Of a stretch of DNA of 29,945 nt, positions 23,715-29,945 are shown piece after piece (position 1 is the stretch's first letter; each line of letters starts with the position of its first letter). The DNA is taken from the IMG/VR virus record IMGVR_UViG_2671181114_000018, one strand, 5' to 3'. Both the position numbers and the translations under genes were made by a program. The stretch is from a virus. Lineage: Duplodnaviria; Heunggongvirae; Uroviricota; Caudoviricetes. The notes below the pieces were generated by a model. That model ran no database searches and had not been told where the DNA came from. It worked only from the letters and a program-made list of their open reading frames with translations.

Positions 23715-26369
23715 TTAATCTCGTTTAAAAATCCAGCATCGGAATGTATCCGGCATCCGTTGCATATCCCCTTTACCACGGTTATGGCGCTCACTAACTG
23801 CGCTGCGCGTGGTGCTTTGTCTGATGAACCGACGTTCATTACCGTTTTTAAGCAGCTTTTTGATTTCCGTTAAAGTGAACGGAATCCGCTGCCGGTGTGC
23901 TGCTGCGACTTCTTCCATATGATTGAAATTAATTGCAATTTCATTTTCATCTGATGAGTGATTGACGCCATAGGGTGCCAGTTCATCCAGGTAATCAAAC
24001 AGTTCCCAAAACTCCTGCACCATCGGGTGATCCTTTTTAAGCGCCTGACAACGTTCAATAGCCAGCGCGGTGATGGCTTCGCGAGTTTTTTCTATGCGTT
24101 CAACCGGTACCGGCACAACAAGCGCAAGCGCCTCCAGCAAACCCACAAGCTGCGCGTGATTCTTTGCAATACGGATATGGCGAATACTACTGTTAGATTC
24201 CAGCGCATTCCTGGCGCGTTCGTATCCCTTACCGAACGTCTGCATGATTTCTTTCTCACGCATGGTGGCCAGTAGTGTGAATCCCGATACCTGGCTAACA
24301 GGGAGTTGTTCCAGCCGCTCCGCAGCGTGGCGCGTCTGAATAGACTGCCCGCGCTTGTCGGTATAGATATGGATAATACGCTCCAGAAACGCCTTGCTGC
24401 CGTCTGTATCAGCGTTCTGCGCAATCACAATACTGCCCCTGAATGGCGGTTCGTATGTTTCGTTATTGTTGGACTTTATCCCCACAGCACGGGAAGCGCG
24501 GCCGTTATACAATGATTTCAGTTCATCCCAGTCAAAAGCACGTTGCTTGGCGTTATCCGTTGTGCGGTCGCCTTCGATTAACACAACCGGCAGGTTGCCG
24601 ACCTGGGCAAAGTTGCGCCCACGCGCTGCGGCCGTGGACTTAGAAGGATCAAAACCTTCATATTCTTCACGGCCGGCGAGCTTCCACAGAAATTCAATCA
24701 GTGTAGATTTACCTGTCCCCGGTTCACCCACGATTTCCAGAAACGGGAATGACTTATCGCGCTCCCGGATTTGTTCGGCAAAAAGCGACCCCAGCCAGAA
24801 TGCTAGCGCCACGTACCCCTTTTCACCAAATGCCGTCCAGATATCGTCAATCCAGCCCGTGGTAAATTCATTCAGCTTTGGATTCAGATCCAGCGATGGT
24901 GTCAGGCTCAGGCTTTTTACACTGGCGTGATTGATTTCAAAATAGTCTTCATCGTTCATCTCATACAGCCGGCCATCGCACACGGCCACACGGTTAAACA
25001 GCCACGCTGAATAATCTTTGTTGTAGCCGATAAAGTTCTGTGTCTTAACCTCTTTTATTTCAGGAAGCCGCATCTGGATGAACTTATCCAGTTGCTTGGT
25101 GCTGCCGGTGTATACCGCCCCTTTGGCGATATGCAGCAAACGTTTCTTAAACTCGGCGGAGCTGGTGAGCTGGTTCGCCGTGAAGGTATCCTTCACCGCT
25201 GGCCGGTTCGGCATGTTGACCTTAACGTAATACCAGGACTCGTCAGTAGGTTCAGAACGCTGGAAATAGAGCGGAGTCAGCCAGCAGTTAGCTATTTCTG
25301 TCACGCCGCCAGATTCTTTCACCGCACGTTCTTTGGCTTCCCAGTCCTGGATAACTTCGGTACCGGTATTACTTATGCGCTCATAGGCTCGCATGTACCT
25401 GTCCAGATCCAGTTCAAACCAGAACATGCGGGAATTATGTTCAAAATAGAACGAATGCCACTCATTATGCTGATGCATGAGCAGCGCTTTTTCAGTCGGA
25501 CTTTTCGCCAGCAGAATATCGCCATAGTAGCGATAATTTTTGATGTCCGATTTACTGAACCGGCCACGCAACAACAAGTCATTCCAGTCCAGACAGGAGG
25601 ATGATTTCACCGGCTGCGCCGCACGAACTTTCCAGCCGGCATCCTCACTACGTGCAGCAAATGCCAGCGTGTGCTTTGTGCCGGCCTTATCGCCGTCAAA
25701 TGCCCATACAAGGCGTGGGCGCGGTTTTTCGCCCAGTTCTTTGGCCAGCGTATCCAGTGCGGCCAGAGGGTAGTTGTTACTGCTCAGTGTGGCAACTGCG
25801 GGTAAACCCGCCTGGCAAAGACTCAGCGCATTAAATATCCCCTCAGTGATCCAGATTTCATTCACTTCCAGCAGGTTGACAGAAGGTGGTACCCACCAAT
25901 GGCCAACATAACTCCCTTTAATATTGGCTTTTTGCTTACCAAAGCGTTGGGGCTGGTCAATAATGCGCTCCCACGTCGCACCACATGCCAGCTTAAATTT
26001 GACTGTTGCCGATCCCATGCCATCTTTAACAAACGCGCCCTGGGTGAAAATGCCTTTCAGTGGTTCGGTATCCAGCCCTCTGGCCTCACGCAGATACGCC
26101 TCAGCAGCTGCGTGTGGGGTTTCAGGAGTGTCCTGATACCGTTTAGACCAGTCCTCAAAAATATCCGGGTACAGCTCTTTAACAACGACCTGATGGCCGC
26201 AGTTATTTTCGCGACCACACTTCAGAATCCAGGGCTTATCTATGCTGGTGAATAATTCGCGCTTACGACACTTAGGGCATACACCCTGCTGCAAATACTT
26301 ATCCCGCTCTTTAAACTCAAAATCCTGAACAAGACGGCGCACAACGTCCTGTTGTATCGTTGCGTTCAT
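23715..26369 (-). CDS. Replicative primase-helicase, P4 alpha-type (zinc-binding primase + D5-like SF3 helicase)
   Basis: Track ORF 23715-26405 (896 aa); probable start 'MNATIQQ' (26369). N-terminal zinc-ribbon Cys pairs (CPKC...CGRENNCGH), Walker A 'GEPGTGKST' in the helicase part; size and domain order resemble P4 alpha. Confidence 0.8.
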   Translation of the reverse strand: MNATIQQDVVRRLVQDFEFKERDKYLQQGVCPKCRKRELFTSIDKPWILKCGRENNCGHQVVVKELYPDIFEDWSKRYQDTPETPHAAAEAYLREARGLDTEPLKGIFTQGAFVKDGMGSATVKFKLACGATWERIIDQPQRFGKQKANIKGSYVGHWWVPPSVNLLEVNEIWITEGIFNALSLCQAGLPAVATLSSNNYPLAALDTLAKELGEKPRPRLVWAFDGDKAGTKHTLAFAARSEDAGWKVRAAQPVKSSSCLDWNDLLLRGRFSKSDIKNYRYYGDILLAKSPTEKALLMHQHNEWHSFYFEHNSRMFWFELDLDRYMRAYERISNTGTEVIQDWEAKERAVKESGGVTEIANCWLTPLYFQRSEPTDESWYYVKVNMPNRPAVKDTFTANQLTSSAEFKKRLLHIAKGAVYTGSTKQLDKFIQMRLPEIKEVKTQNFIGYNKDYSAWLFNRVAVCDGRLYEMNDEDYFEINHASVKSLSLTPSLDLNPKLNEFTTGWIDDIWTAFGEKGYVALAFWLGSLFAEQIRERDKSFPFLEIVGEPGTGKSTLIEFLWKLAGREEYEGFDPSKSTAAARGRNFAQVGNLPVVLIEGDRTTDNAKQRAFDWDELKSLYNGRASRAVGIKSNNNETYEPPFRGSIVIAQNADTDGSKAFLERIIHIYTDKRGQSIQTRHAAERLEQLPVSQVSGFTLLATMREKEIMQTFGKGYERARNALESNSSIRHIRIAKNHAQLVGLLEALALVVPVPVERIEKTREAITALAIERCQALKKDHPMVQEFWELFDYLDELAPYGVNHSSDENEIAINFNHMEEVAAAHRQRIPFTLTEIKKLLKNGNERRFIRQSTTRSAVSERHNRGKGDMQRMPDTFRCWIFKRD

Positions 26370-26408
26370 ATATAATCCATGTGTGAAATGATGAATAAAA
26401 GGCAAAAA

Positions 26409-26627
26409 CTATATTCTGTACTGCTTGTTATATCTTTCATGCGTCATTAACTCCCAGCTTCTGCCCTTATCCTTACTAAGCAAACGCCAGCGATAGGAGA
26501 CATGAACAGAGAAATAATGATTTGGTTTTATAACCTGATATATCTTTTTGCCGTTGTAATATTCTGTCAGCGCTGAAAATGCCTTGTTAATGACACTTTC
26601 ACTTGCATGAGAGGTCACTTTCAGCAT
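26409..26627 (-). CDS. Hypothetical early protein
   Basis: 72-aa ORF immediately upstream of the primase-helicase gene in the same operon; AT-rich; no motif recognised. Confidence 0.35.
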   Translation of the reverse strand: MLKVTSHASESVINKAFSALTEYYNGKKIYQVIKPNHYFSVHVSYRWRLLSKDKGRSWELMTHERYNKQYRI

Positions 26628-26629
26628 AG

Positions 26630-27199
26630 TTATTTCACACTGGCTATTTTAACGAGATAAGTCCAGACGTAAGACACTAGTTTAGCCTGATAAATAGCGT
26701 CATATAGTGCATGGTGCGGTGTACCTTCAAATTTAATAATATTTTTGATGTTCAAACCTAAATCTTTGGCCAGCGCATTTATCGTCCTGACATCCCGGTC
26801 ATTCCAGTAATTCCACATCGGGCTTAACAAGCCTACCTTATTTGCAGCATGGCGGAGGATAACGTTATCAAACGACGCTCCATTACCCCAAACCTGTAAA
26901 TGATGTGCATCAGTGAGTTCACTGATAAAGTGGAAAAGGTCAGAAATGGCCGTATCCAGCGGACAATTCGCATCATTAATAATCTCGCTCCTTGCTTCGG
27001 AGGACTGACGCAGCCACCACAGAACTGTATCGGCTCCCATAGTGCAGTCGTAATCAACGCTACTTGCAAGACTGACACGGCGATAGAAAGTTTCCCCCAT
27101 TTCACCCGTTTCCGGATTAAATAATACAGCGCCAATAGCGGTAATTGCTGCCGTTGGTTTGTTATCCATTGTTTCAAGATCAATCATTAAATGTTTCAT
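26630..27199 (-). CDS. 3'-5' exonuclease (DnaQ-like fold)
   Basis: 189 aa beginning 'MKHLMIDLETMDNKPTAAITAIGAV...', an Exo I-type motif (D-x-E); later 'HHALYDA' resembles the Exo III motif. Common in P2-like early operons. Confidence 0.65.
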   Translation of the reverse strand: MKHLMIDLETMDNKPTAAITAIGAVLFNPETGEMGETFYRRVSLASSVDYDCTMGADTVLWWLRQSSEARSEIINDANCPLDTAISDLFHFISELTDAHHLQVWGNGASFDNVILRHAANKVGLLSPMWNYWNDRDVRTINALAKDLGLNIKNIIKFEGTPHHALYDAIYQAKLVSYVWTYLVKIASVK

Positions 27200-27208
27200 A
27201 TCGGTTCC

Positions 27209-27544
27209 TTAACGTTGGGAAGCTGCAACAGGTTTTAGATGGGAGTTATTTATTCTTAATGCGTTAGTCGCCAGAGACATAAGACCTGAAATATTGTTTT
27301 CGGTTGGGATGTTTCCACCGAACACCATAAGCGTGATTTTATGAAGTTCCTCAAAATCTTCACTGTCATTATTAAAACGAGCAGTAGAGGTTATACCTTC
27401 AAGACATTTTGCAAGCTGAATGTTTAATTCCATTAACTGCAAACCATCGCTATGAACAGAGAACGTTTCTTTATCAATGGCTTTAGCCTGAGCGTGATAA
27501 TTTTGCAACAGGCTGCGTATGAGAGTCGCGTATTTAGTTTTCAT
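27209..27544 (-). CDS. Hypothetical early protein
   Basis: Track ORF 27209-27577; likely start at internal Met 'MKTKYATLIR' (27544), just after the cox stop. No motif recognised. Confidence 0.35.
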   Translation of the reverse strand: MKTKYATLIRSLLQNYHAQAKAIDKETFSVHSDGLQLMELNIQLAKCLEGITSTARFNNDSEDFEELHKITLMVFGGNIPTENNISGLMSLATNALRINNSHLKPVAASQR

Positions 27545-27816
27545 CGTGGTTCTCCCAAACCCAGCCACATTAACCACCCATCCCTAATTTCCTTCGGGCG
27601 GCTCTCATACGCTAATTTCATTCCGTTGTTCCAAGCAGGAAGATAAATCCAATATTCTCCAGCTCGACCAGAGGTGGATTGCGGGTCTGTCATTTCAACA
27701 ATAGGTAATTTCCCTTTTTCAATCATCCCCTTTACAGCTCGCTCCGATTTTCCAATGAGCCGAGCGAATTCCTGATAGGGGACAGCATCGCTGGTTAGAA
27801 CAATTTGCTTAGTCAT
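27541..27816 (-). CDS. cox: Cox-like excisionase / early-promoter regulator
   Basis: 91 aa, first gene of the early operon, divergent from C. Length and sequence closely resemble P2 Cox as I recall it ('...IPYQEFAKLIGKS...GRAGEYW.YLPAWNNG...'). From memory. Confidence 0.75.
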   Translation of the reverse strand: MTKQIVLTSDAVPYQEFARLIGKSERAVKGMIEKGKLPIVEMTDPQSTSGRAGEYWIYLPAWNNGMKLAYESRPKEIRDGWLMWLGLGEPR

Positions 27817-27933
27817 TTCAAGCCCTCTCGCGGTTCTGAAATTGCCTTTAATGGCTTATAGTGTCCTCTGATGTTCAGTTTTAAACATCAAACAATCTAC
27901 ATCTAAATCAAATACTATTGAGATCTAAACACC
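27817..27933. promoter_or_regulatory. Immunity switch region between cox and C (early and repressor promoters with operator-like repeats)
   Basis: 117-bp AT-rich intergenic region between divergent genes. Direct repeats ATCTAAA at 27901-27907 and 27923-27929 (22-bp spacing) and palindrome tgatgtt-N8-aacatca (27869-27890). Promoter elements not individually assigned. Confidence 0.5.
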
Positions 27934-28233
27934 ATGTCAAACACGATAGGCGAAAAAATAGTACTAATTAGAAAGTCTGAATACCTAAGTCGACAGCAAC
28001 TAGCTGATATATCTGGCATTCCTTATGGGACTCTTAGTTATTACGAAAGCGGTCGTTCTACCCCTCCGACTGACGTTATGATGAAAATCCTCCAAACACC
28101 GCAGTTCACTAAATACACCCTATGGTTTATGACTGACCAAATCTCGCCAGAATCCGGTCAGATCGCGCCGGCTCTCGCACACTTTGGGCAAGATGCAACA
28201 ACCTCGCAGCCCTCAGACCAAAAGACTGGCTAA
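27934..28233 (+). CDS. C: Immunity repressor C (P2 C-type)
   Basis: 99 aa; 'MSNTIGEKIVLIRKSEYLSRQQLADISGIPYGTLSYYESGRSTPPTDVMMKILQTPQFTKYTLWFMTDQISPESGQIAPALAHFGQ' is near-identical to P2 C as I recall it, same length. Confidence 0.9.
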   Translation: MSNTIGEKIVLIRKSEYLSRQQLADISGIPYGTLSYYESGRSTPPTDVMMKILQTPQFTKYTLWFMTDQISPESGQIAPALAHFGQDATTSQPSDQKTG

Positions 28234-28348
28234 CCATTTACCGCGAATACATGCACCACAAGTGCATGCTACTGGCAGCTAAATTTTGCACCAGACATTA
28301 CAAAGAGTTAGGAACGAGAAGAGAACGAACCCATCGGAGGGCTTTCTT

Positions 28349-29362
28349 ATGACAGTTAAGAAACTCGATGATGGTCGGTATGAAGTGGATATCAGACCTG
28401 CCGGGCGCAACGGAAAGCGCATCCGCAGGAAGTTCGACAAAAAAAGCGAGGCTATCGCTTTCGAAAAACACACGCAGTACAACCACCACAACAAAGAATG
28501 GCTTTCGAAGCCGACAGACAAGCGGCGTCTGTCAGAGCTAACGGCTATATGGTGGGAGTTGAAAGGAAAGCACGAGGAACACGGAAAATCTAATCTTGGG
28601 AAAATTGAAATATTTACCCGGATAACTGATGACCCCTGTGCGTTCCAGATAACGAAAGCACTTATCAGCCAGTACAGCGCTACCCGCAGAAGCCAGGGTA
28701 TAAAGCCATCAAGCATTAACCGGGATTTAACCTGCATAAGTGGCATGTTCACCGCATTAATTGAGGCTGAATTGTTCTTCGGTGATCACCCGATACGCGG
28801 TACGAAAAGACTGAAAGAACAGAAGCCGGAAACCGGCTATCTGACACAGGATGAAATTAGCTTGTTGCTTTCGCAACTGGACGGAGACAACAAGAAGATT
28901 GCGATTCTTTGTCTTAGTACCGGCGCAAGATGGGGTGAAGCCGCGCGGCTGAAAGCGGAGAACGTGATCCATAACCGCTGTACGTTTGTTAAAACCAAAA
29001 CGAACAAACCACGCACTGTGCCAATTTCTGACGAGGTGGCAAATATGATCGCCAACAACAAGCGAGGCTTTCTTTTTCCGGATGCAAACTATCCAGCATT
29101 CAGACGGTTGATGAAGGAACTGAAACCTGATCTTCCGGCCGGACAAGCAACCCACGCATTGCGTCACAGCTTCGCAACCCATTTCATGATTAACGGTGGG
29201 AGCATCATCACGCTGCAACGTATCCTTGGCCATTCGCGAATTGAGCAAACTATGGTCTACGCACACTTTGCCCCGGAATACTTGCAGGACGCGATCGCCC
29301 TCAATCCGTTACGTGGAGGAATTGAGGTTCAGAGTGTCCACACAGTGTCCACAGACGAGTAA
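28349..29362 (+). CDS. int: Tyrosine integrase (P2 Int-type)
   Basis: Track ORF starts at 28286 with TTG; real start is Met 'MTVKKLDDGRYEVDIRPAGRNGKRIRRKF' at 28349 with GGAGGG upstream. Catalytic C-terminal 'HALRHSFATHFMINGGSIITLQRILGHSRIEQTMVYAHF' (R..H-x-x-R...Y). Downstream of C as in P2. Confidence 0.9.
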   Translation: MTVKKLDDGRYEVDIRPAGRNGKRIRRKFDKKSEAIAFEKHTQYNHHNKEWLSKPTDKRRLSELTAIWWELKGKHEEHGKSNLGKIEIFTRITDDPCAFQITKALISQYSATRRSQGIKPSSINRDLTCISGMFTALIEAELFFGDHPIRGTKRLKEQKPETGYLTQDEISLLLSQLDGDNKKIAILCLSTGARWGEAARLKAENVIHNRCTFVKTKTNKPRTVPISDEVANMIANNKRGFLFPDANYPAFRRLMKELKPDLPAGQATHALRHSFATHFMINGGSIITLQRILGHSRIEQTMVYAHFAPEYLQDAIALNPLRGGIEVQSVHTVSTDE

Positions 29363-29446
29363 CTAAATATGGCTTTCAGTGGTCTTGTGTGCCGCGCAAA
29401 CCCGCATTGCACCGTTGAAAGCCCCTATTGTAAGGGTACATAAACG

Positions 29447-29469
29447 CCCTTACACGGGCTTATTTTTTT
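29447..29469. other. Phage attachment-site core (prophage right junction), P2-type core
   Basis: cccttacacgggcttattttttt is the reverse complement of the P2 att core AAAAAATAAGCCCGTGTAAGGG as I remember it; about 85 bp downstream of int, within a hairpin (gtaaggg...cccttac) plus T-run. Confidence 0.6.
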
Positions 29470-29627
29470 ATGCATAAGCCCTATCTCTGGTAACCGTCTT
29501 CCATTGACCACATCGATAGAATCCTCCTTCATAGCACGATGCCTTTCACTTATCGGCATCGTGCTCCCACAAGTTCCGGCTACGCACAGCCAGAACGCGC
29601 ATATTTGACGCTTACCAAAAAATATTC

Positions 29628-29945
29628 TCACTCTCCACATTTGAATGTCAGACGAGCGACACCATGTAATCCTACACCTTCTGTCTTCAGCTCAACTATT
29701 TGCATTTTTTTGCCCTGAGTAACACAGAAATGAGTTGCATCATTTTTTACTATATTTTCTGCACCAGATATTCTACCCCTGGCTAAAGAAGCTTCGGCTT
29801 CGGTGTAGTATTGGTTATCGAGTTTACGCTGAATATTACTTTTATATGCAAGACCAAATTTACCGATACTTGTCTCATCATTATGCACAGCACAACCAGA
29901 CATAATAAAAATACTAATTAATGATATAGCAGCTATCTTTTTCAT
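29628..29945 (-). CDS. Small lipoprotein (probably flanking, non-phage gene)
   Basis: 105 aa starting at the window edge; signal peptide with lipobox 'IMSGC' (MKKIAAISLISIFIMSGCAV). AT-rich; outside the att core. Confidence 0.55.
   Translation of the reverse strand: MKKIAAISLISIFIMSGCAVHNDETSIGKFGLAYKSNIQRKLDNQYYTEAEASLARGRISGAENIVKNDATHFCVTQGKKMQIVELKTEGVGLHGVARLTFKCGE

Follow-up and report, generated by a model that had tools for sequence, protein, structure and literature searches.

The stretch of DNA analysed here, hereafter the window, comprises 29,945 nucleotides (IMG/VR record IMGVR_UViG_2671181114_000018), and the region of interest within it is the 117-nt cox/C intergenic region at positions 27817-27933, which separates two divergent genes. 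On its left lies cox, a 91-aa open reading frame on the minus strand (27541-27816) that heads the early (lytic) operon; its product was matched by Pfam to Phage_Cox (PF10743, E=4.5e-43) and is 80% identical to the Cox protein of phage P2. On its right lies the gene of the C immunity repressor on the plus strand (27934-28233), a 99-aa product with an HTH_3 match in Pfam that is 87% identical to P2 C over 99 aa and wholly identical at residues 30-50. The recognition helix of P2 C is Tyr31-Ser39 with Arg41 close by (PMC2995052); helix 3 (Tyr31-Ser39) and Arg41 are the same in the prophage C, so that the specificity residues Tyr31, Thr33, Ser35, Tyr36 and Arg41 are all kept. The integrase gene (28349-29362, plus strand; Int_N and Phage_integrase in Pfam) is the second gene of the operon read from the promoter Pc. 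The order of C and then int, with Cox encoded divergently from C, is that of P2, which is also the closest phage to the cox-C stretch (74.6% identity overall). An earlier note on this DNA, made from its letters, had described a divergent cox/C intergenic region with a P2-type C/Cox immunity switch, and the open reading frames, the Pfam matches and the P2 alignment agree on that description.

The prophage as a whole is a mosaic. Its structural and replication genes (6597-27544) are 86.5% identical to Escherichia phage ESSI2_ev239, an ESSI-2-like member of Peduoviridae, and this match ends at about the 3' end of cox, beyond which the cox-C-int module (27541-29362) is P2-like. The early operon downstream of cox (23715-27577, minus strand) is unlike that of P2, which has B and A there: it comprises a 122-aa open reading frame (27209-27577) that gave no Pfam match and shares 37 nt with the 3' end of cox, an Rv2179c-like 3'-5' exoribonuclease (26630-27199), a 72-aa open reading frame and an 896-aa Toprim/DUF5906 primase-like protein (23715-26405). 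The right flank (29380-29945) is E. coli chromosome, 99.1% identical and carrying the gene yegR, which identifies the host as E. coli and places the prophage next to yegR. None of 5426 complete E. coli genomes contained a cox/C region more than 78% identical over its length, and when complete E. coli genomes were searched for additional lineages, the sole yield was P2-type sequence rightward of 27890.

The two promoters of the switch could be placed by scanning and by alignment with P2. On the minus strand, the promoter scan recovered TTGACA-17-TAGTAT (27940-27912; 10/12 match, 17-nt spacer), the hexamers of which are those annotated for the P2 early promoter Pe; the -35 element TTGACA (27935-27940) overlaps codons 1-3 of C and the -10 element TAGTAT lies at 27912-27917. 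The promoter prediction that the earlier note had proposed as a check thus yields Pe. On the plus strand, Pc of the C-int lysogenic operon is represented by a putative -35-like TGAAAT (27837-27842), a weak match that aligns with the annotated Pc -35 of P2, and by the -10 element TATAGT (27857-27862; TATAAT in P2), aligned with the annotated Pc -10. The latter reads TATA[AG]T in all 23 distinct aligned sequences, with five of its six positions invariant. The genes are divergent, yet Pe and Pc face one another and are convergent; since Pe has its -35 element over the first codons of C, the operator adjoins the C start codon. In P2, the transcripts from Pe and Pc have an overlap of about 35 nt (PMC1904263), which should also hold here, judging from the P2 primer extension.

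Two copies of ATCTAAA lie on the plus strand near the C start, at 27901-27907 and 27923-27929, 22 bp from start to start, as had been noted earlier. Taken within the window alone, these repeats and the palindrome described below are weak against chance: ATCTAAA occurs three times in the whole window against 2.83 expected, and when the 117-nt region was dinucleotide-shuffled 5000 times, 15.5% of the shuffles held an exact direct repeat of 7 nt or longer with a spacing of 11-40 bp and 7.5% a palindrome whose arms were 7 bp or longer. Their significance therefore rests on homology and conservation. A degenerate scan of viral contigs for two ATCTAAA copies 22 bp apart gave mostly chance hits among the matches listed.

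The homology with P2 is close. The O1 half-site (27923-27930, minus strand; ATCTAAAC on the plus strand) matches P2 at 8/8 positions and lies between the Pe -35 and -10 elements; the O2 half-site (27901-27908, minus strand; ATCTAAAT on the plus strand) matches at 7/8, departing from P2 at the eighth base, and lies over the predicted Pe start (~27905). In pairwise alignment, both coincide exactly with the 'O1/O2 repressor binding site' annotated in the P2 record AF063097. Between 27890 and 27960 the window differs from P2 at a handful of positions, only two of which (27908-27909) fall in the operator/Pe stretch 27890-27948, and 335 E. coli genomes with P2-type prophages align solely from 27890 rightward, at 91-96% identity. 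O1 and O2 flank the Pe -10 element at 22 bp from centre to centre and fit the P2 half-site GTTTAGAT on the Pe strand. The target of P2 C is a pair of direct half-sites of 8 bp, spaced 22 nt from centre to centre and spanning the Pe -10, both of which are needed for binding (PMC1904263, PMC2995052); mutation of O1 (GTTTAGAT) in P2 abolishes repression and binding, and the C footprint consists of four patches that reach down to about +16 of Pe (PMC1904263). The suggestion that the repeats are an operator of the P2 C type, to be compared with P2 operator sequences, is thus upheld base for base. Given the identical recognition residues of C and the homology of O1 and O2, the two repeats can be assigned with high confidence as the C operator half-sites of a prophage of the P2 immunity class, and the prophage very probably has P2 immunity. 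As a separate observation, O1 lies inside an 11/12 quasi-palindrome, TTGAGATCTAAA (27918-27929), centred on AGATCT, and O2 of the L108 lineage lies likewise within TGTTTA-catc-TAAACA; the 'direct-repeat' half-sites are, on these two examples, partly dyad-symmetric internally.

Between Pc and O2 lies the palindrome TGATGTT-cagtttta-AACATCA (27869-27890), which the earlier note had reported as having 7-bp arms; the arms (27869-27875 and 27884-27890) are indeed 100% complementary, with 8 nt between them. It starts about 7 nt past the Pc -10, at the predicted Pc +1, and covers about +16 to +37 of the Pe transcript; a stem that starts at Pc +1 is consistent with the 35-nt overlap in the literature, provided that the Pe start is at ~27905. 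As RNA of the plus strand it forms a hairpin of -6 kcal/mol, and the folding of the Pc leader is not unusual (z = -0.79); on the minus strand the hairpin extends to 11 bp with G.U pairs. An Rfam search gave no family match at E<=1. An intrinsic terminator was considered and rejected, there being zero terminator-like sites in 27500-28300, an A+T-rich stem and no T-run on either strand. The cox leader RNA of the window (27805-27905, minus strand) folds at -27.7 kcal/mol (z = -4.55 to -5.1, reached by 0/200 shuffles) into the 11-bp G.U-extended palindrome hairpin and a second hairpin over the cox AUG. A strong fold of the Pe (cox) leader was rejected as a general feature since it is not conserved (P2 z = -1.2), and so was sequestration of the cox start codon, where 27815-27820 pairs with 27837-27842: it is found in the window and in P2 and is not general, the mean pairing probability across the switch classes being 0.52.

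The Cox sites of P2 follow the consensus TTAAA(G/C)NC(A/C), with at least six boxes spaced 10-11 bp over Pc (PMC3936717). In the window, the consensus scan recovered one perfect box (9/9), TTAAAGGCA on the minus strand at 27843-27851, which is homologous to the P2 box TTAAACGCA, and a weaker cox-box-like sequence (7/9), TATAAGCCA on the minus strand at 27852-27860, the P2 equivalent of which is TATAAGACA. These two Pc-proximal boxes have starts 9 bp apart, lie to the left of the palindrome and overlap the Pc -10. The other matches, at 27875-27889, are weaker or oppositely oriented; an array of six boxes is not recognisable by the consensus scan, and P2 likewise gives just three clear boxes. 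The loop and right arm of the palindrome hold TTAAACATC (27881-27889; 8/9), and TAAAACTGA (7/9) lies on the opposite strand within it; P2 has no good cox-box at the position aligned to TTAAACATC, its sole match in the palindrome being 7/9 in the left arm. O1 itself scores 8/9 as a cox-box, and TTAAACATC resembles one because the C half-site core CTAAAC is like TTAAA(G/C); the TTAAACATC match is weak evidence of Cox binding in the palindrome, where contact by Cox is conceivable. The same likeness is seen at the C half-site with its flank, CTAAACACC (27923-27933; 678-686 in P2, locus L001), which is an 8/9 cox-box. C and Cox, though antagonistic repressors, would on this comparison recognise related A+T-rich cores, a likeness that may be relevant to the repression of Pe reported at high Cox.

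Relatives of the switch were gathered by an exact search of public viral and metagenome contigs for O1 with the Pe -35 element, together with a search for C homologues; more than 120 loci resolved into five lineages and two close relatives of the window, L138 (IMGVR_UViG_3300010279_000222) and L139 (IMGVR_UViG_2636415848_000011). The fragment L018 of E. coli CM2, which carries the Pe/operator portion alone, was left out as a likely engineered construct: it is an isolated copy of the P2 Pe/operator (NZ_CP114891.1, 578534-578589) beside polylinker-like sequence, upstream of a Dam-family methyltransferase gene, and is probably an engineered reporter or recorder construct rather than a prophage. 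In every lineage the Pc -10 and O2 are equally far apart, so that the alignment is gap-free, and the 22-nt blocks at the palindrome can be compared directly: TAGTGCCCACATCCAAGCACTA in P2, TAGTGTTCAATACTAAACACTT in the L108 type, TGATGTTCATTTCTAAACATCA in the L116 type, TGATGTTCAGTTTTAAACATCA in the window and TTGTGTGCATTTCTAAACACAA in L014. The five lineages share exact O1 and Pe -35 sequences, yet they differ in the arms at the same centre, with TAGTGC/GCACTA, AGTGTT/AACACT, TGATGTT/AACATCA and TTGTGT/ACACAA among them. RNAalifold returned a 5-bp core stem with three pairs changed on both sides. Over the 7-pair stem, 85% of the cells are paired and three of the seven pairs show compensatory change; the covariation score was reached by 0/500 shuffles, only about four independent compensatory events lying behind it, and sliding the partner by 1-3 columns lowered the pairing to 19-47%. 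Single transitions break the stem in the natural variants L138, L199 and L040/L042/L046. As judged from this alignment, the palindrome is a real and separate conserved element, kept by position rather than by sequence. The two close relatives encode a C 100% identical to that of the window; the intergenic region of L139 is that of the window bar one base before the ATG, and in L138 the right arm is altered (AACACCG) and O2 is restored to ATCTAAAC.

Systematic comparison was extended to 233 P2-like cox/C intergenic regions, which reduced to 132 distinct sequences; these formed 34 classes by sequence, many of which are heteroimmune. In 14 of the 34 classes the stretch 20-85 nt upstream of C holds a palindrome whose arms are 7 bp or longer, against 2.28 +/- 1.42 in shuffles (maximum 7), an enrichment of about six-fold in which the observed count was reached by no shuffle; with arms of at least 8 bp, the count is 8/34 against 0.59. 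A third repeat, with at most 2 mismatches and 18-24 bp further upstream, occurs in 16/27 classes against 2.58 +/- 1.49 (maximum 8) when the promoter-proximal repeat pair was held fixed and only the upstream part was shuffled. These counts establish a recurrent architecture of such switches, in which the stretch from the Pc start to O2 contains a palindrome overlapping a third repeat in phase. In several heteroimmune classes one arm of the palindrome is the operator repeat: the right arm equals O2 in CL2 and CL7, and CL10, CL23 and CL31 carry TTAGAG with its inverted copy. In CL2 (e.g. L352 and L353) the palindrome has 10-bp arms, TCACCTATCG-N14-CGATAGGTGA, of which the right is the O2 of the class, and L353 shows a compensatory double change (T...A) with the O2 sequence altered too. 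An operator repeat that serves as a palindrome arm is as compatible with a DNA-binding dyad as with a hairpin. The variants compatible with G.U pairing showed no strand preference, being split between the strands, and folding z-scores over the 34 classes showed no strand bias (mean -1.70 on the plus strand, -1.43 on the minus strand). Without such a preference an RNA role is not separable from a DNA-level role, and the recurrent palindrome may act in RNA or in DNA.

The third repeat has a counterpart in the window. The candidate half-site O3 (27877-27886, plus strand; AGTTTTAAAC) matches O1 (AGATCTAAAC) at 8/10 positions and is spaced exactly 22 bp from O2 and twice that (44 bp) from O1; the repeat search accordingly pairs 27874-27890 with 27918-27934 at 76% identity and a spacing of 44. 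Scored against A[CG]ATCTAAAC, this position, -57 from the C ATG, gives 7-8/10 in 5/5 lineages of P2 immunity, P2 itself (ACATCCAAGC) included, and the chance of such a score is P=0.012 per fixed position. O3 falls within the palindrome, across its loop and the inner part of its right arm (about +8 to +17 of Pc), and is put forward as a candidate third C half-site, weak and degenerate, in helical phase with O2 and O1. High levels of C repress Pc in P2 (PMC3448106, PMC1904263), and the end of the published P2 C footprint (about +16 of Pe, PMC1904263) stops short of O3.

Alternatively, the palindrome region might be an auxiliary C operator acting on DNA only, in which C at O3, perhaps with an inverted partner, blocks Pc when repressor is abundant, and arm complementarity is a by-product of half-site-like repeats. 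The exact 22-bp phase of O3 in 5/5 lineages, the third phased repeats in 16/27 classes where 2.6 are expected, the class-specific half-sites in the arms of CL2, CL7, CL10, CL23 and CL31, the TTTAG and CTAAA within the P2 arms, and the known repression of Pc by high C (PMC3448106, PMC1904263) are all in keeping with it. Against these, the C helix is identical in the five lineages and yet the outer arm positions, outside O3, co-vary, for which a single protein of fixed specificity does not account; the arm centres are 15 bp apart, whereas a C dimer spans two consecutive major grooves (PMC2995052); and the reported C footprint ends before O3. We regard this DNA-only account as possible and somewhat doubtful.

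A functionless palindrome, that is a chance inverted repeat in an A+T-rich spacer with the repeats alone making up the switch, is unlikely. It would suit the modest rarity of the palindrome within the window alone (P=0.075), the natural variants with a stem mismatch, and the want of a strand-specific signal or an Rfam family, but 5/5 diverged lineages have, at an unchanged centre, palindromes of 6 bp or more that differ in sequence, and this and the roughly six-fold enrichment over 34 classes that no shuffle matched speak against it.

Least probable of the alternatives is the proposal of the earlier note that the palindrome is a site for Cox or a host factor, a dyad whose bound dimer or filament would modulate Pc or Pe: the matches TTAAACATC (8/9, loop and right arm) and TAAAACTGA (7/9, other strand), the reported spread of P2 Cox filaments from Pc toward Pe at high concentration (PMC3936717), the conceivable co-variation of site and protein given that Cox differs among the five lineages, and the binding of H-NS to fragments with Pe and Pc from a P2-like phage of Yersinia (PMC10321612) favour it, but cox-boxes are 9-mers every 10-11 bp rather than dyads whose arms are centred 15 bp apart, the perfect box and the one beside it sit to the left over Pc as in P2, P2 is without a good cox-box where the window has TTAAACATC, the cox-box likeness follows from the C half-site core (O1 itself scoring 8/9), H-NS binding is driven by composition and is not palindrome-specific, and a host factor of fixed specificity cannot track, and would not tolerate, arms that vary compensatorily between same-operator phages of one host species.

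The reading we favour, to which we assign a probability of roughly 0.8 as a whole, is that of a P2-immunity switch (O1/O2, Pe/Pc and Cox-boxes) with, in addition, a palindrome that carries O3 and is probably selected as a stem-loop. The near-identity of the DNA and the proteins with those of P2 allows us to infer for the prophage the steps demonstrated in P2. Pe (-35 at 27940-27935, -10 at 27917-27912) would fire leftward into cox, and the weak Pc (-10 at 27857-27862) rightward into C and int. As in P2, C dimers bound cooperatively to O1 and O2 would shut off Pe and keep lysogeny, Cox on its boxes over Pc (27843-27860) would turn off C and int, and the convergent Pe and Pc would interfere mutually. 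At high C, O3 may also be filled, which would block Pc and give the negative autoregulation reported for P2. The arm complementarity appears to have been selected for itself, with a stem-loop at the very 5' terminus of the C-int mRNA as its likeliest form; a mirror-image stem-loop would form near the 5' end of the cox mRNA, the palindrome filling the 5' part of the transcript overlap. Protection of the 5' end, or pairing of the overlapping Pe and Pc RNAs, are possible roles. A stem-loop fits better than a protein-binding dyad because the C recognition helix is constant while the outer arm bases co-vary.

A wider proposition is offered tentatively, as one that may well fail: P2-like switches in general might possess a three-part operator, in which a weak phased O3 within a compensatorily kept palindrome at the Pc start gives Pc autoregulation together with 5' stem-loops of the convergent RNAs. 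If true, the three-part operator would explain the long-known and mechanistically unexplained repression of Pc by C, and a switch treated as purely transcriptional would gain a further layer at the RNA level, through stabilisation of 5' ends or sense/antisense pairing. The palindrome and O3 at the Pc start are candidates for self-repression of C at high concentration and for Pe/Pc RNA interaction. For annotation purposes, the prophage can be described as an ESSI-2-like E. coli phage with a P2 immunity cassette, which should be P2-immune and repressed by P2 C; the operator and the N-terminus of C move together almost unchanged, as a module, against a diverging cox side.

With regard to known systems, 5' stabilising stem-loops of the ompA type and cis-antisense hairpins of the CopA/CopT type serve as analogies of mechanism only. 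The likeness lies in a short stem-loop at the predicted Pc 5' end and a complementary hairpin in the convergent Pe transcript; the difference, in that the stem is short here (5-7 bp) and without strand-specific conservation. To our knowledge, neither mechanism has been experimentally evidenced in any P2-like phage.

The pR/pL switch of phage 186 (CI/Apl) is alike in its face-to-face promoters, its overlapping transcripts and the Cox-like Apl, which is also an excisionase (PMC1904263, PMC7498355), but its CI is a two-domain protein of about 196 aa that acts on inverted repeats, with distal sites and looping, and it has a CII establishment promoter; since none of these features apply here, a 186-type switch was ruled out. 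The heteroimmune P2-like switches (W-phi, P2 Hy dis) share a small C on direct repeats at Pe, face-to-face promoters and Cox as counter-repressor (PMC1904263, PMC1904268), and differ in half-site sequence, in spacing (34 nt in W-phi), in where the half-sites lie with respect to Pe and in the residues that set C specificity; by its half-sites, spacing, Pe position and C residues the prophage would not be heteroimmune to P2.

Closest of all is the P2 switch itself (AF063097). The P2 literature examined makes no mention of the palindrome or of O3, and the original papers of 1984, 1987 and 1999 may describe the dyad. The order int-C / cox, O1, the 22-bp spacing, the Pe -35 and -10 elements and the position of the Pc -10 are shared with P2, and each of the two has a palindrome centred at the equivalent position between Pc and O2. 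In contrast, the cox-proximal half, from Pc to the palindrome, has diverged, the arms are TGATGTT/AACATCA here and TTTAGTGC/GCACTAAA in P2, only one perfect cox-box is found here, and the remaining prophage is ESSI-2-like. On sequence grounds, then, the switch is the known P2 C/Cox system, to which the prophage adds a member, with the palindrome and O3 as a modest and apparently undescribed detail of that system.
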